Source: Escherichia phage FL23. From it: DNA of 64,000 nucleotides. The stretch lies in the sequence record PP400787; one strand, written 5' to 3'. Below the pieces are notes generated by a model. It made no database searches. It worked only from the letters and a program-made list of their open reading frames with translations, and was not told the origin of the DNA. Every line of letters begins with the position of its first letter. Within the stretch, counting starts at the first letter, position 1. Made by a program: the position numbers and the translations under genes. This document shows, piece after piece, positions 46,337 to 63,764 of the stretch.

Positions 46337-46867
46337 ATGTCGCAAGCACTGCAACAAATTTTTAACCAAGCAAATACAACTAACTTTGTAGTATCAATAC
46401 CACATAGTAATACTACATCTGCTTTTACTTTAAATGCTCAGTCAGTTCCTATTCCAGGAATTAGAATACCTGTTACTGATACCGTGACTGGGCCGTTTGG
46501 ACTGGGCCGAGCACAACGTCCAGGTGCTACATTTGAGTACGATCCACTCATCGTGAGATTTATAGTTGATGAAGAACTTAAGTCATGGATAGGAATGTAT
46601 GAATGGATGCTAGGAACTAGCAACTATCTTACAGGTGAAAATACTGCCCAAAAAACAGGTCCTGAATACATTACGCTTTACATTTTAGATAATAGCAAAA
46701 CTGAAATCGTGATGTCAATAAATTTTTATAAGCCTTGGGTTTCTGACCTGTCTGAAGTAGAATTTAGCTATACGGAAGATTCAGACCCGGCTTTAGTATG
46801 TACAGCAACGATTCCTTATACGTATTTTCAAGTAGAAAAAGATGGAAAAATTATAGCGGAAGTTTAA
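46337..46867 (+). CDS. 3: Tail completion / sheath stabiliser (gp3-like)
   Basis: 176 aa from ATG 46337 with SD gaggaa (track ORF starts at upstream TTG); matches T4 gp3 length. Confidence 0.75.
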   Translation: MSQALQQIFNQANTTNFVVSIPHSNTTSAFTLNAQSVPIPGIRIPVTDTVTGPFGLGRAQRPGATFEYDPLIVRFIVDEELKSWIGMYEWMLGTSNYLTGENTAQKTGPEYITLYILDNSKTEIVMSINFYKPWVSDLSEVEFSYTEDSDPALVCTATIPYTYFQVEKDGKIIAEV

Positions 46868-46891
46868 TGCTTCAGTTTCATGTGTTATAAT
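46866..46891 (+). promoter_or_regulatory. Middle-mode promoter for gene 1
   Basis: MotA-box-like aaTGCTTCA (46866-46874) and TATAAT (46886-46891). Confidence 0.5.
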
Positions 46892-46916
46892 CTTAACTAA
46901 ATTTGAGGAGAAACAT

Positions 46917-47641
46917 ATGAAACTAATCTTTTTAAGCGGTGTAAAGCGTAGTGGAAAAGATACTACTGCTGATTTTATCATGAGCAATTATTCTGCAGTT
47001 AAATACCAACTTGCTGGTCCTATTAAGGATGCATTGGCTTATGCATGGGGAGTATTTGCAGCAAATACCGACTATCCTTGCTTAACTCGTAAAGAGTTTG
47101 AAGGAATTGACTATGATCGTGAGACTAATTTAAATCTAACTAAATTAGAAGTAATCACGATTATGGAACAAGCATTTTGCTATCTTAATGGTAAAAGCCC
47201 AATTAAAGGTGTGTTTGTTTTTGATGACGAAGGACAAGAATCAGTTAATTCCGTAGCATTTAACAAGATTATTGACGTTATAAATAATATTGAAGATCAA
47301 TGGTCAGTCCGTCGTCTGATGCAAGCCCTAGGTACGGATTTGATTGTTAATAACTTCGACCGCATGTACTGGGTAAAATTATTTGCTTTAGATTATCTTG
47401 ATAAATTTAACTCAGGTTATGATTATTATATCGTTCCTGATACTCGTCAAGATCATGAAATGGATGCGGCTAGGGCGATGGGTGCTACAGTAATTCATGT
47501 AGTTCGTCCTGGTCAAAAATCCAATGATACACATATTACAGAAGCTGGATTGCCAATTCGTGATGGCGATTTAGTAATTACAAACGATGGTTCTCTTGAA
47601 GAACTTTTTTCTAAAATTAAAAATACACTAAAGGTACTATA

Positions 47642-48340: not shown

Positions 48341-48390
48341 TTCACAAAGTTGTTTACATACTGATGAGGTAGTGATACTATTACCTCATC
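48341..48390 (+). promoter_or_regulatory. Early promoter with embedded stem-loop (PeSL-like) upstream of the 85-aa CTS gene
   Basis: tttcacaaagtTGTTTACA, 17-nt spacer, TACTAT (48376-48381); 9-bp inverted repeat gatgaggta/tacctcatc (48363-48371 / 48382-48390) around the -10. Confidence 0.65.
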
Positions 48391-48412
48391 AAAATTAATT
48401 AGGAAAATAAAA

Positions 48413-48670: not shown

Positions 48671-48720
48671 TTTCACAAAGTTGTTTACATAGGGTTTTAG
48701 TTGTGATACTATTACCCTAT
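48671..48720 (+). promoter_or_regulatory. Early promoter with embedded stem-loop (PeSL-like)
   Basis: tttcacaaagtTGTTTACA, spacer, TACTAT (48707-48712); inverted repeat atagggt/accctat (48689-48695 / 48714-48720). Confidence 0.65.
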
Positions 48721-48980: not shown

Positions 48981-49020
48981 GTTTACTTTTAGATAGGGTA
49001 GTGATACTATTACCCTATCT
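48981..49020 (+). promoter_or_regulatory. Early promoter with embedded stem-loop (PeSL-like)
   Basis: GTTTACT, spacer, TACTAT (49005-49010); perfect 10-bp inverted repeat agatagggta/taccctatct (48991-49000 / 49011-49020). Confidence 0.65.
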
Positions 49021-49038
49021 ACTACTGAGGAGAATAAA

Positions 49039-52858: not shown

Positions 52859-52894
52859 GTTTACGCAGGCTCATGATTGAGATATTATGAGCCT
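52859..52894 (+). promoter_or_regulatory. Early promoter with embedded stem-loop (PeSL-like)
   Basis: GTTTACG, 17-nt spacer, TATTAT (52883-52888); inverted repeat aggctcat/atgagcct (52867-52874 / 52887-52894). Confidence 0.55.
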
Positions 52895-55394: not shown

Positions 55395-55831
55395 AAACAC
55401 TATCAGCTGGTATTATCTTTATGACAGAAGATAAAGATTTATTTATGGGTCGGGTTACTGGTTCTCGTAAGCCTGGAATGATGGCACATCGCTGGGATAT
55501 TCCAAAGGGCCGCGTAGAAAGTTCTGATTTGAATGCACTGGAAGCTGCAAAAAGAGAATGCTTAGAAGAGACCGGTTTTAGCAATTATAATCCAGACCTT
55601 CTAGAAGACCTAGGTGTATTTAAATATTCTAGTAATAAAGACTTACAGTTATTTTATTATACGATTCCAGTAGAGCATGAGATGTTTAGAAATTGCCATT
55701 GCGAGTCTTATTTTGAAAATAAAGATGGCGTTATGATTCCAGAGATGGATGCTTTTGCTCTTATTCCTCGTACTCAGTGGCAATATGTGATGGGTCCTTC
55801 ACTTTACCGAATAATGAACAACCTCTTTTAA
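55391..55831 (+). CDS. nudE: Nudix hydrolase (NudE-like)
   Basis: Nudix box GRVESSDLNALEAAKRECLEETGF; start set at ATG 55391 (ATGA overlap with upstream stop, SD aggaaa) rather than the track's 55376. Confidence 0.75.
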   Translation: MKTLSAGIIFMTEDKDLFMGRVTGSRKPGMMAHRWDIPKGRVESSDLNALEAAKRECLEETGFSNYNPDLLEDLGVFKYSSNKDLQLFYYTIPVEHEMFRNCHCESYFENKDGVMIPEMDAFALIPRTQWQYVMGPSLYRIMNNLF

Positions 55832-56634
<803 letters not shown>

Positions 56635-56635
56635 T

Positions 56636-56689
56636 GTTTACTTCCTCCAAGGGTTTTGATACTATACATTCATCAACTACTTGGAGGAA
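56636..56689 (+). promoter_or_regulatory. Early promoter with SD-sequestering stem-loop (PeSL-like)
   Basis: GTTTACT, 17-nt spacer, TACTAT (56660-56665); 10-bp inverted repeat 56642-56651 / 56680-56689 whose 3' arm contains SD GGAGG. Confidence 0.6.
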
Positions 56690-56692
56690 ATT

Positions 56693-56795
56693 ATGACCCG
56701 TCCGAAGCGTCCATTGCGATAAGTCAAGCACGCTTAGATAAAAAATTGCTCAACGCCCGACTTGGTACAAATACTTTGGTAAATCAATTTACTAA
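56693..56795 (+). pseudogene. denV: denV (endonuclease V / pyrimidine-dimer glycosylase) relic: start codon context plus about 30 C-terminal codons, frameshifted
   Basis: ATG-ACC-CGT (MTR) then out of frame; frame A reads [12 protein letters not shown], frame B (after A6 run 56740-56745) reads [16 protein letters not shown], matching my recollection of T4 DenV C-terminus (...[32 protein letters not shown]); about 105 internal codons are absent. Confidence 0.6.
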
Positions 56796-56801
56796 GGAAA
56801 A

Positions 56802-56987
56802 ATGAAAATGTATCAAGAATTTATCGTTGAAGCAGATGCCAAAGGTCCTAAATTTAAAGTTAAAGCTTTCATTGGTGATGCGGAAGACTTTGGCTCATTA
56901 AAACGTAATGGGTATTCTTTCTTAGGTGGCGATGGTAAAGAAATCAAAACACCTATGCAAAACGTAGTGAAATTGCTTATGTTGTAG
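56802..56987 (+). CDS. Internal-protein-like capsid-targeted protein (CTS MKMYQEFIVE...), possibly truncated by frameshift
   Basis: 61-aa ORF with SD aagga; a second open frame 56939-57064 continues with protein-like sequence. Confidence 0.5.
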   Translation: MKMYQEFIVEADAKGPKFKVKAFIGDAEDFGSLKRNGYSFLGGDGKEIKTPMQNVVKLLML

Positions 56988-57067
56988 CAAGTCCTAAAGT
57001 AGATGTTGACGATATTGGATATGATTTTAACAACTTCGGAATTATTTCTGGCGGTAAAGCTTAAACG

Positions 57068-57097
57068 GTTTACGCTTAAGTATTAATATGGTATAAT
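57068..57097 (+). promoter_or_regulatory. Early promoter
   Basis: GTTTACG, 17-nt spacer, TATAAT (57092-57097). Confidence 0.6.
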
Positions 57098-57125
57098 TAC
57101 TCTATCAAAACAAACAAGGAAACAT

Positions 57126-57428
57126 ATGAAAACGTATAAAGAATTTATTACTGAAGCGCGAGTGAGTGCAGGTAAATTATATGCCGCTATAAATAAAAAG
57201 GCCCATTCATTTCATGATTTGTCCGATAAAGACCGTAAGAAACTTGTAAGCCTTTATATTGACAAAGAGCGTATTCTCGCTCTTCCTGGCGCTAATGAAG
57301 GTAAACAGGCAAAGCCTTTGAATGCTGTTGAAAAGAAAATTGATAACTTTGCTTCTAAATTCGGTATGTCTATGGATGACCTTCAGCAAGCGGCTATCGA
57401 AGCAGCTAAAGTAATTAAAGGTAAATAA
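57126..57428 (+). CDS. Internal-protein-like capsid-targeted protein (CTS MKTYKEFITE...; IPII-like size)
   Basis: 100-aa ORF with SD aagga and CTS-like N-terminus. Confidence 0.6.
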   Translation: MKTYKEFITEARVSAGKLYAAINKKAHSFHDLSDKDRKKLVSLYIDKERILALPGANEGKQAKPLNAVEKKIDNFASKFGMSMDDLQQAAIEAAKVIKGK

Positions 57429-57430
57429 CA

Positions 57431-57460
57431 GTTTACTTTCTCCTAGAATTGTGATAGTAT
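57431..57460 (+). promoter_or_regulatory. Early promoter
   Basis: GTTTACT immediately after the stop of the previous gene, 17-nt spacer, TAGTAT (57455-57460). Confidence 0.5.
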
Positions 57461-57541
57461 ATTCATAATTACTTGGAGGGGTAAATACAGAAATGGACAA
57501 TTCATGCGCCACGGAATGGCCCAACATAAAAGAGAAACTAA

Positions 57542-58093
57542 ATGAGAACATTTTTAACTGGACCTTATCTATCCCTGATGAATGCTTTTACACACCATTC
57601 TGATGCTAGAGTAGAAGAAATTTGTAAGAACGGTTATGTCCCACCATTTGAAGATGTACTCAAGCAGTACTGTACACTTCGTTTAGACGGCGGCAGACAA
57701 TCAGGTAAATCAATTGCTGTGACTAACTTCGCTGCTAATTGGTTGTATGATGGCGGAACTGTTATTGTTCTTTCTAATACTTCAGCTTATGCTAAAATTT
57801 CTGCTAAAATTTCTGCTGGCAACATTAAAAAAGAATTTTCTCGTTATTCTAGCGATGATATTCGATTCCGTTTATTTACTGATTCTGTTCGTAGTTTTAT
57901 TGGCAATGAAGGTTCTAAATTCCGTGGATTAACGCTTTCTCGTATTCTGTACATAATTGACGAGCCTATTAAAGCTCCTGATATGGATAAGATTTACAAT
58001 GTCCATATTAAAACAGTCCAACACTGTTGCAAAAGCAAATATTGCATCGGCGGTAATGCTCGTCCTCAATTTTTTGTGATTGGAATGCAATGA
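57542..58093 (+). CDS. Small P-loop NTPase-like protein (183 aa)
   Basis: Walker A-like GGRQSGKS and Walker B-like ILYIIDE. Confidence 0.5.
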   Translation: MRTFLTGPYLSLMNAFTHHSDARVEEICKNGYVPPFEDVLKQYCTLRLDGGRQSGKSIAVTNFAANWLYDGGTVIVLSNTSAYAKISAKISAGNIKKEFSRYSSDDIRFRLFTDSVRSFIGNEGSKFRGLTLSRILYIIDEPIKAPDMDKIYNVHIKTVQHCCKSKYCIGGNARPQFFVIGMQ

Positions 58094-58398
58094 TGACCAC
58101 TATTGAAGTTTTTGAATATTGTTATAACAGCCCAGTATGCAATAAAAGGGCTCTTGTAGAAAATTACGAGATTTACCATTTTAAACCTAAACGATATCGT
58201 TTGACTAAAGGTCCGTTCGCAGGGCAGCAGGTTCTTTGTACTGCTCCTAATGCACGGTTAATGACTAGTATTCCGCATTTCAAAATGGAATTTATTGATG
58301 GGCCATTTAAGGGATTAATCACTCAAAGTTTAATGGCGTTTAATTCCGACCCATTTTTGATTAAAGAAAAAACTTGGATAAATTTATTTTCTAATTGA
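58090..58398 (+). CDS. Hypothetical protein (102 aa)
   Basis: ORF with ATGA coupling to upstream gene. Confidence 0.5.
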
Positions 58399-58405
58399 GG
58401 TTATT

Positions 58406-58768
58406 ATGAAAGCATATCAAATTCTTGAAGGTGCACATAAAGGCACTATTTATTTTGAAGACGGTACTCAAGCCCGGATTATTGTCTCTAAGACTTTTAA
58501 AGAAGACGCTATTGTAGACCCGGAAATTTTCTACGGTTTGCATGCCCGTGAAATTGAAATTGAACATCAACCTAAAGTTAAAATTGAAGGTGGTCAACAT
58601 CTGAACGTTAACGTTCTGCGTCGTGAAACTCTGGAAGATGCAGTTAAGCATCCGGAAAAATATCCGCAGCTGACCATCCGTGTATCCGGTTATGCAGTTC
58701 GCTTTAACTCTCTGACTCCGGAACAGCAGCGCGACGTTATCGCTCGTACCTTTACCGAGAGTCTATAA
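58406..58768 (+). CDS. Autonomous glycyl-radical cofactor-like protein (GrcA/YfiD-like; T4 Y06I-like)
   Basis: C-terminal 60 residues (...[60 protein letters not shown]) carry the glycyl-radical motif RVSGY; SD gagg. Confidence 0.75.
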
Positions 58769-58989
58769 TGGCTAAATTGATTATAGAAGGGTCTGAAGAT
58801 GTTTTAAAATGTTTTGCCGCCTGGTTTAGTTGCTCAGGCGAGCAATCATTCACTGAAGCATTTAGAATGGGTGATATTACTGGAAACTATCCGACAACTG
58901 ATATCACTGTACGTGGATATGGTATTAATGAACCTATTCGTTTAGTTGAATACGATTTATGTACTGGTGAGGAAGTCAAATATGATTGA
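58768..58989 (+). CDS. Hypothetical protein (73 aa)
   Basis: ORF coupled (TAATG) to upstream gene. Confidence 0.45.
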   Translation: MAKLIIEGSEDVLKCFAAWFSCSGEQSFTEAFRMGDITGNYPTTDITVRGYGINEPIRLVEYDLCTGEEVKYD

Positions 58990-59248
58990 AGATATTAAGG
59001 GTTATAAACCACATACTGAAGAGAAAATAGGTAAAGTAAATGCTATTAAAGACGCTGAAGTTCGTTTAGGACTTATCTTTGACGCTTTATACGATGAATT
59101 TTGGGAAGCATTTGATAGCTGTGAAGATGATGAACTCGCGAAGAATTACGCCGAAAGCCTCGATCAGTTAACTATTGCTAAAACGAAACTCAAAGAAGCT
59201 AGTATGTGGGCTTGTCGTGCTGTGTTCCAACCAGAGGAAAAATATTAA
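58982..59248 (+). CDS. Hypothetical protein (88 aa)
   Basis: Verified ATG 58982 overlapping upstream stop. Confidence 0.45.
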
Positions 59249-59526
59249 TGGCTCAATTAAGCGCAGGGTTTGGTTATGAGTATTATACTGTCCCTCGTCG
59301 TGTATCTATTGCTCCTAAGAAAATTCAAAGTCTTGATGATTTCCAGGAAGTAGTCCGTAAAGCTTTCCAGGACTATGCACGTTATCTTAAAGAAGATTCA
59401 CAGGACTGCCTCGAAGAAGATGAAATTGCTTACTATGAGCAACGTCTTGAACAGCTTAAAAACTTACATGAGGTTCGTGCAGAAGTTACAAAGTCTATGA
59501 ATAAATTGATTAGATTTAAAGAATAA
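59248..59526 (+). CDS. Hypothetical protein (92 aa)
   Basis: Verified ATG 59248 (TAATG overlap). Confidence 0.45.
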
Positions 59527-59528
59527 CT

Positions 59529-59581
59529 GTTTACTTTTCCTCTTGACTGTGGTATAATTTTTCTATCAGTTAAGAGGAGAA
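59529..59581 (+). promoter_or_regulatory. Early promoter with SD-sequestering stem-loop (PeSL-like) for regB
   Basis: GTTTACT, 17-nt spacer, TATAAT (59553-59558); 10-bp stem ttttcctctt (59535-59544) with aagaggagaa (59572-59581, contains SD). Confidence 0.65.
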
Positions 59582-59585
59582 TAAC

Positions 59586-60047
59586 ATGACTATCAATACA
59601 GAAGTTTTTATCCGTAGAAATAAGCTTCGTCGTCACTTTGAGTCGGAGTTTCGTCAAATTAACAATGAGATTCGTGAGGCATCAAAAGCAGCAGGGGTCT
59701 CATCGTTTCATCTAAAATATTCTCAGCATCTTCTTGATCGTGCAATTCAACGGGAGATTGATGAGACATATGTTTTTGAATTATTCCACAAAATAAAAGA
59801 CCATGTTTTAGAAGTTAATGAATTCCTGAGTATGCCTCCGCGTCCTGACATTGATGAGGATTTTATTGATGGGGTTGAATACCGTCCTGGACGTTTAGAA
59901 ATCACAGATGGAAATCTTTGGCTTGGATTTACAGTTTGTAAACCTAATGCAAAGTTCAAAGACCCGTCACTTCAATGTAGGATGGCAATTATTAACAGTC
60001 GTCGTTTACCAGGAAAGGCTTCTAAAGCAGTAATTAAAACTCAATGA
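59586..60047 (+). CDS. regB: RegB site-specific endoribonuclease
   Basis: 153-aa ORF, same length as T4 RegB; position upstream of vs/tk. Confidence 0.75.
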   Translation: MTINTEVFIRRNKLRRHFESEFRQINNEIREASKAAGVSSFHLKYSQHLLDRAIQREIDETYVFELFHKIKDHVLEVNEFLSMPPRPDIDEDFIDGVEYRPGRLEITDGNLWLGFTVCKPNAKFKDPSLQCRMAIINSRRLPGKASKAVIKTQ

Positions 60048-60054
60048 GGTAAGC

Positions 60055-60600
60055 ATGAGAAAAGCACTACTCGCTGGTCTATTGGCCATTTCAATGATGG
60101 CACATAGCTCCGAGCATACTTTCAGTAATGTCCAACTCGATAACATGCGTTACGCGTATCAATTCGGGGAACAATTTTCTAAGGATGGAAAATATAAAAC
60201 ACACAAAAACATCCATAAGAGCGGATTGGGTCATATAATGGCTGCTATTTTGTGGCAAGAAAGCTCTGCCGGAGTTAATTTAAAATCTAAACCAAAGCAT
60301 CATGCCTATGGAATGTTCCAAAATTATTTGCCTACTATGCGAGCAAGAGTTAAGGAACTTGGTTATAATATGACCGATGCTGAAATAAAAAGAATGTTGA
60401 ATAAACGGTCCAATTCAGCTTCCTGGGCGTACATTGAACTTTCTTATTGGTTAAATATACATAAGGGCGATATAAGAAAGGCGATATCCTCTTATAATTC
60501 GGGATGGAATGTTAAAGCAGGTTCTAAATATGCTTCTGAAGTCCTAGAAAAGGCTAATTACCTTAAAAATAATAAACTTTTGGAAATAGTAAATGACTAA
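60055..60600 (+). CDS. Secreted protein with lytic-transglycosylase-like motif (vs.1 position)
   Basis: 181-aa ORF with N-terminal signal peptide (MRKALLAGLLAISMMAHS) and WQESS motif. Confidence 0.5.
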   Translation: MRKALLAGLLAISMMAHSSEHTFSNVQLDNMRYAYQFGEQFSKDGKYKTHKNIHKSGLGHIMAAILWQESSAGVNLKSKPKHHAYGMFQNYLPTMRARVKELGYNMTDAEIKRMLNKRSNSASWAYIELSYWLNIHKGDIRKAISSYNSGWNVKAGSKYASEVLEKANYLKNNKLLEIVND

Positions 60601-63701: not shown

Positions 63702-63725
63702 AGTCTCCTTCGGGAGACTTTTTTC
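63702..63725 (+). terminator. Intrinsic terminator
   Basis: agtctcc-ttcg-ggagact hairpin followed by TTTTTC. Confidence 0.65.
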
Positions 63726-63734
63726 ATTTTACCG

Positions 63735-63764
63735 GTTTACTTTCCATTTGAGCTGTGATACTAT
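63735..63764 (+). promoter_or_regulatory. Early promoter
   Basis: GTTTACT, 17-nt spacer, TACTAT (63759-63764), directly after the terminator. Confidence 0.6.

Follow-up and report, generated by a model that had tools for sequence, protein, structure and literature searches.

The regB locus of Escherichia phage FL23 (sequence record PP400787) raises the question of whether a hairpin that encloses an early promoter and covers the Shine-Dalgarno sequence (SD) insulates the gene behind it from upstream transcription. The window, that is, the whole stretch of 64,000 nucleotides analysed here, is from a Tequatrovirus. Its regB leader is identical to that of T4, and by tblastn many Tequatrovirus records contain a 100% identical copy of the regB product under the name endoribonuclease RegB. 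The gene has been described as having a typical early promoter, and the GGAG of its own SD is a self-cleavage site of RegB (PMC3014915). The elements of the locus are as follows:

59529..59535, + strand: early promoter -35, (G)TTTACT, identical in T4
59535..59549, + strand: hairpin 5' arm, UUUUCCUCUUGACUG, an anti-SD sequence that occupies the -35/-10 spacer
59550..59558, + strand: extended -10, TGgTATAAT, in the hairpin loop
59565..59565, + strand: predicted +1, the 7th nucleotide past the -10, from promoter geometry
59567..59581, + strand: hairpin 3' arm, CAGUUAAGAGGAGAA, with the SD GGAG inside it at 59576-59579
59586..60047, + strand: regB coding sequence, 153 aa

The promoter (GTTTACT at 59529-35, a 17-nt spacer, then TGgTATAAT) begins 2 nt past the stop codon (59524-26) of a vs.3-like ORF. 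A preliminary description of this DNA had proposed a 10-bp stem between 59535-59544 (TTTTCCTCTT) and 59572-59581 (AAGAGGAGAA), with the SD in the 3' arm and the -10 in the loop, and both pairing and folding confirm it. The ten antiparallel pairs of the core are all Watson-Crick except for one G·U (59537·59579); the helix runs unbroken to 59549/59567 and so reaches 15 bp, two of them G·U, and the minimum-free-energy fold adds 3 further pairs, for a stem of 15-18 bp. The segment 59529-59600 folds with a dG of -22.4 kcal/mol (z = -4.56; 0/200 dinucleotide shuffles as stable), and the SD is predicted to pair with upstream sequence with a probability of 1.00. The 3' arm stops 4 nt short of the AUG (ATG at 59586). 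The predicted start (~59565) lies 3' of the entire 5' arm, and RNA beginning there is essentially unstructured (-1.2 kcal/mol, no better than shuffles).

The same layout had been ascribed to the promoter at 56636-56689, and it holds there as well, with a perfect 10-bp stem, the -10 in the loop and the SD in the 3' arm:

56636..56642, + strand: -35, (G)TTTACT, 2 nt past the stop of an upstream IP-like ORF
56642..56655, + strand: hairpin 5' arm, core 56642-51 (UUCCUCCAAG), partner 56680-89
56657..56665, + strand: extended -10, TGaTACTAT, in the loop; predicted +1 at ~56672
56675..56689, + strand: hairpin 3' arm, core 56680-89 (CUUGGAGGAA), with the SD GGAGG at 56683-87
56693..56722, + strand: start of the denV pseudogene, MTRPKRPLR*

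Here 56642-51 (TTCCTCCAAG) is perfectly complementary to 56680-89 (CTTGGAGGAA) over 10 bp, and the stem extends to 10-14 bp. Over 70 nt it folds with a dG of -19.1 kcal/mol (z = -2.77); over 141 nt z is -3.5, and 0/200 shuffles were as stable. The folding check suggested for the two loci thus yielded stable hairpins at both, and a transcript started at the predicted +1 (59565 or 56672) would lack the 5' arm in either case, as had been anticipated; at this second site such RNA is again essentially unstructured (-4.6 kcal/mol, no better than shuffles). The denV ORF that follows the ATG at 56693 is a dead relic: its C-terminal codons (EASIAISQARLD..., TWYKYFGKSIY*) persist in two other frames, to ~56805. 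It sits in a rearranged IP locus whose gene order is unlike that of T4. The same cassette is also found upstream of an intact denV in L106, L107 and L117.

Further promoters of the window carry related structures, and the gene e hairpin served for comparison:

57431..57486, + strand: third, weaker cassette of the same layout, -35 GTTTACT at 57431-37 and -10 TAGTAT at 57455-60
46874..46924, + strand: gene 1 (dNMP kinase) cassette, dG -21.6
55831..55873, + strand: gene e hairpin, with SD and AUG (55868) in the 3' arm

At the third cassette, 57431-54 pairs with 57463-86 and covers the SD GGAGG (57475-79) of an ATG at 57493, with a masking probability of 0.99 and a dG of -20.0. In gene 1 the spacer (46874-86) of the early promoter at 46863 pairs with 46912-24, AUG included (46917-19), and an inner helix lies over the SD; relative to the window, the T4 gene 1 5' arm has CA for UG, by which two G·U become Watson-Crick pairs. 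Gene e has two late promoters (TATAAATA, at 55834 and 55847) within the 5' arm and loop, and its hairpin in T4 is an experimentally shown case (PMC3014915).

A pyrimidine-rich spacer might complement a purine-rich SD by chance. Non-cognate arms already pair at about -10 kcal/mol through their shared CUCC/GGAG core, and the weaker cases of the window are individually non-significant in spacer shuffles (57432, p = 0.07; 52523, p = 0.17; 63736, p = 0.31). Complementarity nevertheless reaches well past the core, pairing is kept between cassettes whose sequences differ, and the spacers of non-masking early promoters are not CT-rich. Since composition-matched spacer shuffles equalled the duplex in only 0/3000 cases at regB and 2/3000 at the denV relic, chance pairing was rejected for these two; the weak 52523 and 63736 are not cleared of it. 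As an account of the design, chance is scarcely credible.

To express the effect on the ribosome site we used the predicted cost of opening positions -18 to +12 in the read-through RNA as compared with the proximal transcript. At regB this cost is 16.1 vs 3.5 kcal/mol (difference 12.6), at the denV relic 13.7 vs 6.3 kcal/mol (difference 7.4) and at the 57432 cassette 12.4 vs 5.0 kcal/mol, while for gene 1 the difference is 12.2 kcal/mol. The predicted values for gene e, which also lies in the window, are similar, 18.6 vs 2.4-4.9 kcal/mol (difference 13.7-16.2), and there the masking effect is ~100-fold (PMC3014915). As a positive control, the T4 genes without an early promoter that rank highest by this metric are 49, segB, e, I-TevII and I-TevI, which are the published masking cases. 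Equal or larger values are obtained in T4 for alc, alt.-3, motB.2, modB, nrdC.8, 30.8, regB, 1, 55, denV and e.8.

We consider it probable that each element is a nested hairpin module which makes translation dependent on the gene's own promoter. The module would comprise, in ~57 nt, the -35, spacer, extended -10, +1, SD and AUG, with an anti-SD sequence encoded in the -35/-10 spacer, which is unconstrained for promoter function. An RNA initiated upstream would carry the 5' arm, and because this arm is made first and the 3' arm ends 4 nt from the AUG, a hairpin of 15-18 bp should close over the SD ahead of ribosome loading; on such long transcripts the gene would be silent and the GGAG shielded from RegB as well. 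RNA from the nested early promoter would start in the loop (~59565 or ~56672) with the 3' arm only, and would be open and translated, the regB version being also cleavable by RegB. Protein would then be made only during the brief activity of the gene's own early promoter, and the gene would be insulated from dosage and timing imposed from upstream, which would suit a toxic nuclease such as RegB and cassettes moved among genomic contexts. From folding and conservation we infer that read-through transcripts are masked. The idea that the device insulates cassettes agrees with every computational test applied here, though at the denV relic no gene is left to protect.

The proposal presupposes transcripts that enter the cassettes from upstream, and we infer that they exist; the arrangement of promoters and terminators makes this plausible. 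Early promoters lie upstream at 56637, 57069 and 57432, and the late promoters of gene e at 55834/55847. A terminator scan of the + strand called no terminator-like site at either cassette junction. Upstream of regB, its closest hits on this strand, at 58049 and 58430, are weak stems of 5 bp within coding sequence; downstream, its first strong call is at 63702. A search of 54-59.5 kb for MotA-box middle promoters turned up none. Because the promoters found near and upstream of regB are all early, any timing benefit would rest on delayed-early and late read-through. The nested promoters are themselves of the early type (GTTTACT-N17-TGnTATAAT at regB, GTTTACT-N17-TGnTACTAT at the relic), and the TATAAATA late promoter is absent from both sites.

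Both hairpins overlap motifs of the type described as PeSL (promoter-early stem-loop) cassettes, in which an early promoter, a stem-loop and an SD/ATG likewise follow a stop codon (Arbiol et al., 2010, PMC2839356; Comeau, 2014, PMC4122927). An A/T-rich upstream region, the early consensus and then SD and ATG are present at regB and at the relic, and the PST/T4 consensus TTTACW-N17-TAYWAT (PMC4122927) matches both. PeSL stems are frequently between -35 and -10 or overlap the -10, and they too are tied to variable loci and cassette exchange; the PST/T4 examples, however, have their stem-loops just upstream of the promoter (PMC4122927), whereas the regB and relic stems enclose the -10 and end on the SD. 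In these two papers the stem-loop is interpreted as a terminator or attenuator and as a recombination site; the words translation and ribosome are absent from both, and sequester, regB and denV also from the second (PMC2839356, PMC4122927).

Following that published reading, the hairpin could be an attenuator or terminator for polymerase arriving from upstream. One RB49 PeSL stem-loop, placed before lacZ, lowered expression to an extent similar to that of the rrnB T1 terminator, and a terminator role was proposed for promoter-associated stem-loops; analogous elements with T4 early promoters were noted at the IP loci of T-even phages (Arbiol et al., 2010, PMC2839356), and the denV relic lies at such a locus. 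The lacZ test was a transcriptional fusion with a G/C-rich RB49 stem, and the T-even stems considered here are AT-richer. An intrinsic (Rho-independent) terminator has a G+C-rich stem followed by a U run, but neither stem is followed by a U-tract (UAACAUGACU and AUUAUGACCC follow) and the scan calls neither. Moreover, nothing in termination calls for a 3' arm that falls on the SD, as it does in more than 14 different regB stems and some 10 of denV. We therefore regard termination as an unlikely explanation of the hairpin. It is compatible with masking, and the two roles can coexist because an untranslated gene also invites Rho-dependent termination.

The masking reading gains from comparison across T4-like phages, in which the position of the regB gene is conserved. 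The 86 regB loci gave 55 distinct leaders, and at least 14 different stem sequences keep the pairing between spacer and SD. Masked leaders occur in Tequatro-, Dhaka-, Gelderland-, Roskilde-, Karam- and Jiaodavirus and in unnamed lineages; those of Gapriver-, Teguna-, Marfa-, Biquarta-, Muldoon-, Krisch- and Gualtarvirus are without a mask. For covariation we relied on alignment-free cognate and non-cognate duplexes and on a table anchored on the promoter register; in a MAFFT alignment of 27 regB leaders the 3' arms did not line up, as both the length of the loop and the distance from SD to AUG vary. Cognate arm-leader duplexes of regB have a mean of -16.2 kcal/mol, as against -9.9 kcal/mol for mismatched ones (permutation p < 5e-5), and all four Watson-Crick pair types are present at promoter positions -24 to -20. 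For denV, 30 of the 35 distinct leaders, in two different geometries, have a masking probability of at least 0.65, and the cognate mean is -15.0 vs -9.7 kcal/mol for non-cognate duplexes (p < 5e-5). Near-identical cassettes precede different genes, the T4 denV leader being close to a Dhakavirus regB leader; since cassettes are shared in this way, part of the apparent covariation is cassette replacement rather than stepwise compensatory mutation, and the independent units for conservation are cassette types, not sequences. A search with Rfam 15 covariance models over 55500-60200 gave no match at E <= 1.

This mobility could also suggest that the inverted repeat acts as DNA, either as a cruciform or recombination hot-spot for cassette shuffling or as an operator for early-promoter shut-off. 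Inverted repeats flanking a -10 resemble operators, PeSLs have been implicated in recombination and mini-circle formation (PMC2839356, PMC4122927), the 57432 cassette also stands before an intact denV in L116, and the altered gene order of the IP locus fits the same picture. A DNA hairpin or protein site would, however, be strand-symmetric, and here, in 19 of 28 cassettes, the sense strand has the more stable fold (mean difference from the antisense -3.0 kcal/mol; Wilcoxon p = 0.005), with 46 G·U pairs in the sense fold against 22 in the antisense, a bias that implies a structure acting as RNA. Recombination, in turn, requires homology and not self-complementarity ending exactly at the SD. The operator was rejected in particular, as the arms vary among cassettes, so that no single protein fits, and folding is strand-biased. 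A role as DNA is thus highly improbable.

How far the nested design extends was assessed across the T4 genome. Of the 29 genes that have a proximal early promoter, 8 have a masked SD (P > 0.9); among the 97 genes lacking such a promoter there are 2 (Fisher odds ratio 18, p = 1e-4). This count considers only pairing of the SD with the spacer, and so overlooks masks extending over the AUG or into the coding region (gene 1, modB), which the opening metric did pick up, as well as the short-ORF case of the relic. The suggestion that the logic of gene e is repeated at early promoters as a general device is therefore upheld as to repetition, but "general" is too strong, the design being present at about 1/4 to 1/3 of T4 early promoters. 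The others have a hairpin ending short of the SD, or none; because many T4 hairpins around the -10 leave the SD free, SD masking is not the sole purpose of promoter-embedded hairpins.

Most masked T4 SDs contain GGAG or GGAU (regB, denV, nrdC.8, ndd.4, 30.8, e.8, mrh.2, mobD.5, motB.2), and RegB acts only on single-stranded GGAG, secondary structure being inhibitory (PMC3014915, PMC1702504). The main role could accordingly lie in RNA stability or processing. On long polycistronic RNAs the hairpin would keep RegB off the GGAG and bar the entry of RNase E/G, which would preserve the expression of downstream genes such as vs.1 and vs and make the translational silence of regB or denV a side effect; the hairpin could also be a protective 3' structure for the upstream mRNA. 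Several observations speak against this. The strong masks of alc and alt.-3 cover GAGGA, which is no RegB motif, and the GGAG of denV is RegB-resistant in vivo through its 3' context and not through structure (PMC1702504). Exclusion of the ribosome is the better fit for the masks of gene 1 and of the type-B denV leaders, which lie over the AUG. We consider stability or processing quite unlikely as the main role. Predicted structure is in any case not always decisive, and this counts against the masking reading: in vivo, RegB reportedly cuts some sites predicted to be structured (PMC1702504).

With own-promoter-dependent translation as the preferred reading, a broader proposal can be made only tentatively, and we think it may well not hold: that the PeSL-type stem-loops of T-even phages are, as a class, RNA-level self-insulation modules with an anti-SD or anti-AUG arm in the spacer or -10 region. 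If so, the stem-loops of shuffling cassettes would be translational insulators rather than terminators, the cassettes would be plug-and-play when swapped between genomes, and each gene would have two mRNA isoforms, of which ribosomes and RegB could reach one and not the other. Such isoforms might account in part for the way RegB inactivates promoter-proximal early mRNAs and spares longer GGAG transcripts. If own-promoter-dependent translation itself holds, a substantial minority of T4 early genes, regB, denV, alc, motB.2, modB, nrdC.8 and gene 1 included, would be translated only from own-promoter transcripts, adding a post-transcriptional layer to the classical immediate-early/delayed-early split, and the short pulse of RegB synthesis would have a mechanistic reason. 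The module would also offer a natural design of ~57 nt for context-independent gene cassettes.

The masking principle itself is already known from the T4 e/soc/49/I-TevI genes, IS10 and the sigma-B isoforms of Bacillus subtilis; what may be new is its use with nested early promoters. In T4 e, soc, 49 and I-TevI, with segB and I-TevII also implicated, a late promoter lies inside a hairpin that sequesters the SD or AUG (McPheeters et al., 1986, as reviewed in PMC3014915), and the review of these masking hairpins contains no early-promoter example (PMC3014915). Architecture and logic are the same as at regB and the relic: the 5' arm is upstream of the proximal start, SD and/or AUG are in the 3' arm, and long transcripts are masked while proximal ones are open, which at regB and the relic is a prediction. 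The published members have a gp55 late promoter (TATAAATA), whereas regB and the relic have a sigma-70 T4 early promoter, GTTTAC-N17-TGnTAnnAT, and, unlike that class, place the 5' arm in the -35/-10 spacer. The two loci extend the class because the nested promoter is early and not gp55 late, and the effect would be "own-promoter or early only" instead of "late only".

Outside the phages, IS10/Tn10 is said to be protected from external promoters by "fold-back" inhibition, reportedly described by Davis, Simons & Kleckner in 1985 (Cell 43:379): outside transcripts reportedly hold a segment that pairs with the translation start, and the element's own sigma-70 promoter is said to start downstream of that segment. 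As proposed for regB and the relic, a mobile unit shields its own gene from read-through; IS10 differs in being a bacterial transposon of unrelated sequence with extra antisense control, whereas the elements described here belong to phage early genes.

In the Bacillus subtilis sigma-B regulon, a gene can have two mRNA isoforms whose translation differs by as much as 100-fold (McCormick et al., 2021, PMC8208050). As in our model, the isoform started upstream folds over the ribosome site and the one from the internal promoter does not, although an alternative sigma factor, the stress response and long-range structures are involved; that case was shown by DMS-MaPseq and ribosome profiling (PMC8208050), and the phage hairpins are known from prediction. 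Finally, E. coli sigma-54 promoters contain CT-rich anti-SD insulators, ~25 bp or less upstream of the SD (Levy et al., bioRxiv 10.1101/086108). There too a promoter-encoded motif pairs with the SD and silences read-through translation, but those insulators are motifs of 3-5 nt, whereas the phage helices are 10-18 bp long, tailored to their leaders and set in sigma-70-type promoters.

Over 56300-60100, the sequence matches Escherichia phage FL44 at 99.9% identity and many other Tequatrovirus genomes at 92-94%. The recognisable T4 genes, all on the + strand, are nudE, e, IP-like genes, ipII, homologues of vs.8 to vs.3, regB, vs.1 and vs. The features discussed here are:

55834 and 55847, late promoters of gene e
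55868-56356, + strand, gene e
56637, 57069 and 57432, early promoters upstream of regB
56636-56642, + strand, -35 element GTTTACT of the denV relic cassette
56693, + strand, ATG of the relic
56802-56987, + strand, 61-aa IP-like ORF (MKMYQEFI...)
57126-57428, + strand, ipII
59529-59535, + strand, regB -35 element GTTTACT, a T4 early-promoter consensus, 17 nt upstream of the extended -10
59550-59558, + strand, regB extended -10 TGgTATAAT, in the hairpin loop
59576-59579, + strand, regB Shine-Dalgarno sequence (SD) GGAG
59586, + strand, regB ATG
59586-60047, + strand, regB

At regB, TTTTCCTCTT (59535-59544) pairs with AAGAGGAGAA (59572-59581) through nine Watson-Crick pairs and one G·U, confirming the 10-bp stem that includes the SD and places the -10 in its loop, as proposed in the preliminary description. 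The helix extends to 59549/59567, giving 15 contiguous bp, and the minimum-free-energy fold adds three pairs. Folding of 59529-59600 gave -22.4 kcal/mol (z = -4.56), as stable a fold being found in 0/200 shuffles. The relic was said to share this layout, and it does: TTCCTCCAAG (56642-56651) pairs perfectly over 10 bp with CTTGGAGGAA (56680-56689), behind the same GTTTACT and with TGaTACTAT (+ strand) in the loop. RNAs folded from the predicted +1 of regB (~59565) and of the relic (~56672) were unstructured. Pairing by chance is disfavoured, since spacer shuffles with the leader re-paired reached the observed duplex energy in 0/3000 cases for regB and 2/3000 for the relic.

The relic is correctly named. 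In the pseudogene (56693-56805) the start codons MTR run into the C-terminal part in the wrong frame, and a further frameshift follows; the ORF reads MTRPKRPLR-stop, and C-terminal denV codons survive in two other frames. The promoter cassette of the relic remains intact, now in front of the downstream IP-like genes. The intact denV of T4 is preceded by an analogous cassette, and the weaker third cassette of the window, at 57432, is found before an intact denV in the locus L116.

Because T4 and the window have identical regB leaders, regB loci were gathered more widely to test selection, from phage records, IMG/VR and metagenomes (86 loci, 55 distinct leaders). The stretch immediately downstream of the -35 base-pairs with the SD region in Tequatrovirus, Dhakavirus, Gelderlandvirus, Roskildevirus, Karamvirus, Jiaodavirus and several further lineages, through stems that vary by lineage, for example UUUUCCUCUUGACUG / CAGUUAAGAGGAGAA, UUCUCCUCUAGUUG / CAACUAGAGGAGAA, AUCUCCUUUUAGU / ACUAAAAGGAGAU, AUCCUCUCUG / CAGAGAGGAU, UCUCCUGUAAG / CUUACAGGAGA, AUCCUCAUUUG / CAAAUGAGGAU and CUCCUCUUG / CAAGAGGAG. 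MAFFT left the 3' arms out of register, so cognate and non-cognate duplexes were compared alignment-free: duplexes of the 5' arm averaged -16.2 kcal/mol with its own leader and -9.9 with leaders of other lineages, a contrast matched by 0/20,000 permutations. With the register anchored on the promoter, positions -24 to -20 show every one of the four Watson-Crick pair types. The pairing is absent in Gapriver- and Tegunavirus, where the promoter is present; the Marfavirus hairpin leaves the SD free, a true terminator lies upstream in Biquarta- and Muldoonvirus, and Krisch- and Gualtarvirus regB are without their own promoter. Such promoterless regB genes start 1-4 nt downstream of the preceding gene in Krischvirus E26 (L022) and Providencia phage PSTRCR_121 (L023); in the latter that gene is denV (endonuclease V), so that regB and denV are adjacent.

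Among 39 denV loci (35 distinct leaders), masking probability was at least 0.65 in 30 of the 35, with cognate pairing at -15.0 versus -9.7 kcal/mol non-cognate (p<5e-5). In type A, as in the window, the spacer holds the 5' arm; in type B this arm is made up of the -10 and the first bases transcribed, and its partner extends from the SD through the AUG. The proximal transcript would be without the 5' arm in both. Type B leaders are L103, L110, L111, L114, L118, L123-L129, L134 and L137, and the geometry of T4 modB looks the same. Near-identical cassettes stand before different genes, the T4 denV leader resembling the Dhakavirus regB leader; much of the leader variation is therefore cassette replacement, and the independent units are cassette types (~14 for regB, ~10 for denV), each keeping its own complementarity.

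A DNA-level role of the inverted repeat is disfavoured by strand bias. In 19/28 masking cassettes the sense strand gave the more stable fold (mean difference -3.0 kcal/mol, Wilcoxon p = 0.005), and it has 46 G·U pairs versus 22 on the antisense. Such asymmetry is what structure in the sense transcript predicts, unlike a cruciform or an operator bound by protein; arm diversity also excludes the operator.

Mask strength was taken as the predicted cost of opening -18 to +12 on read-through versus proximal RNA. The predicted costs were 16.1 versus 3.5 kcal/mol for regB, 13.7 versus 6.3 for the relic, 12.4 versus 5.0 for the 57432 cassette and 18.6 versus 2.4-4.9 for gene e of the window, in line with the proposal that the gene-e logic is repeated with early promoters. 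In T4, gene e is reported to be repressed ~100-fold on early transcripts (PMC3014915). We surveyed every SD-bearing minus-strand gene of T4, 29 with a proximal early promoter and 97 others. Among the latter the metric was highest for 49, segB, e, I-TevII and I-TevI, exactly the published or implicated masking cases, which serve as a positive control. The read-through versus proximal difference reached 7 kcal/mol or more in 11/29 early-promoter genes (alc, alt.-3, motB.2, modB, nrdC.8, 30.8, regB, 1, 55, denV and e.8) versus 13/97 others (Mann-Whitney p = 3e-4); scored more strictly, on the SD alone, the counts were 8/29 versus 2/97 (Fisher odds ratio 18, p = 1e-4). The proposed "general device" is thus common at T4 early promoters, but not universal. 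At the gene 55 (late sigma factor) start (T4 AF158101 ~40157), masking probability is 0.99 and the difference 9.7 kcal/mol, with an early-type promoter match between the start and the masking upstream sequence. Within the window, the gene 1 (dNMP kinase) cassette (46874-46924) has a 13-bp helix (dG -21.6) between its promoter spacer and the AUG region, not the SD; from this phage to T4, UG to CA in the 5' arm turns two G·U pairs into Watson-Crick pairs.

Other strong early-promoter hairpins surround the -10 and end before the SD, in T4 at dmd, mobD.2, ipI, ipII, 30.7 and motB, and in the window at:

48362-48391, promoter 48353
48689-48720, promoter 48684
48990-49021, promoter 48982
52867-52894, promoter 52860

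These span 11-15 bp and end 5-30 nt before the SD; the sense strand is more stable in 10/13 (G·U 20 versus 7). The regB and relic elements physically belong with the PeSL-like promoter and stem-loop motifs, noted at T-even IP loci and read as terminators or attenuators (PMC2839356). That reading is weakened because the stems have no U-tract and their 3' arms consistently lie on the SD, although a terminator role could coexist with masking, e.g. through Rho acting on an untranslated gene. A role in RNA stability or RegB shielding is possible, but would leave unexplained the masks over non-GGAG SDs (alc, alt.-3) and over an AUG (gene 1).

Structure, conservation, strand bias, enrichment and the positive-control metric support masking as the probable function. 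The regB and relic cassettes start 2 nt after the upstream stop codon, and the terminator scan called no terminator-like site at either junction; between them only weak 5-bp stems were called on the + strand, at 58049 and 58430, inside coding sequence. RNA polymerase should therefore read into regB from 56637, 57069, 57432 or 55834/55847. On such RNA the 5' arm would be made before the 3' arm and the helix completed 4 nt before the AUG, so that the SD would be sequestered co-transcriptionally. Judging from footprint size, a ribosome terminating at the upstream stop (59524-59526) would cover no more than the first one or two pairs, and the nested promoter would be the source of the sole open isoform. 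RegB, which requires single-stranded RNA, cuts its own SD (PMC3014915, PMC1702504); the open isoform would also be the one it can cut at GGAG, and RegB synthesis would thus be a brief, self-limited pulse. The modB GGAG, predicted to be structured, is yet cut in vivo (PMC1702504), which fits masking, as a proximal-start isoform without the 5' arm would account for the cut.

The regB and relic cassettes share their logic with T4 e, soc, 49 and I-TevI, where the nested promoter is late rather than sigma-70-type early. IS10 fold-back inhibition follows the same logic, as do B. subtilis sigma-B isoforms (PMC8208050) and CT-rich insulators in sigma-54 promoters (bioRxiv 10.1101/086108). The words "translation" and "ribosome" are absent from both PeSL papers (PMC2839356, PMC4122927), and the 2010 review of T4 post-transcriptional control (PMC3014915) has late-promoter examples and no early ones. 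The two cassettes would extend a known mechanism to early promoters, an arrangement possibly described before in older primary literature.

Gene order in the IP locus (56338-57428) differs from T4 (L001): e, a 98-aa IP-like ORF (MKTYSEF...), the denV relic, the 61-aa IP-like ORF and ipII, versus e, ipIII, ipII and denV. The ipII promoter (57069-57126) has no hairpin in the window (dG -4.4) and a 14-bp hairpin around the -10 in T4 (L001 6719-6800), so the promoter cassette has been exchanged before the same gene. The changed gene order fits a shuffling of cassettes at promoter repeats. The first strong + strand terminator-like site downstream of the gene e late promoters is a bidirectional hairpin at 63702-63719 (AGTCTCC-TTCG-GGAGACT, then T-runs), directly upstream of the early promoter at 63736.
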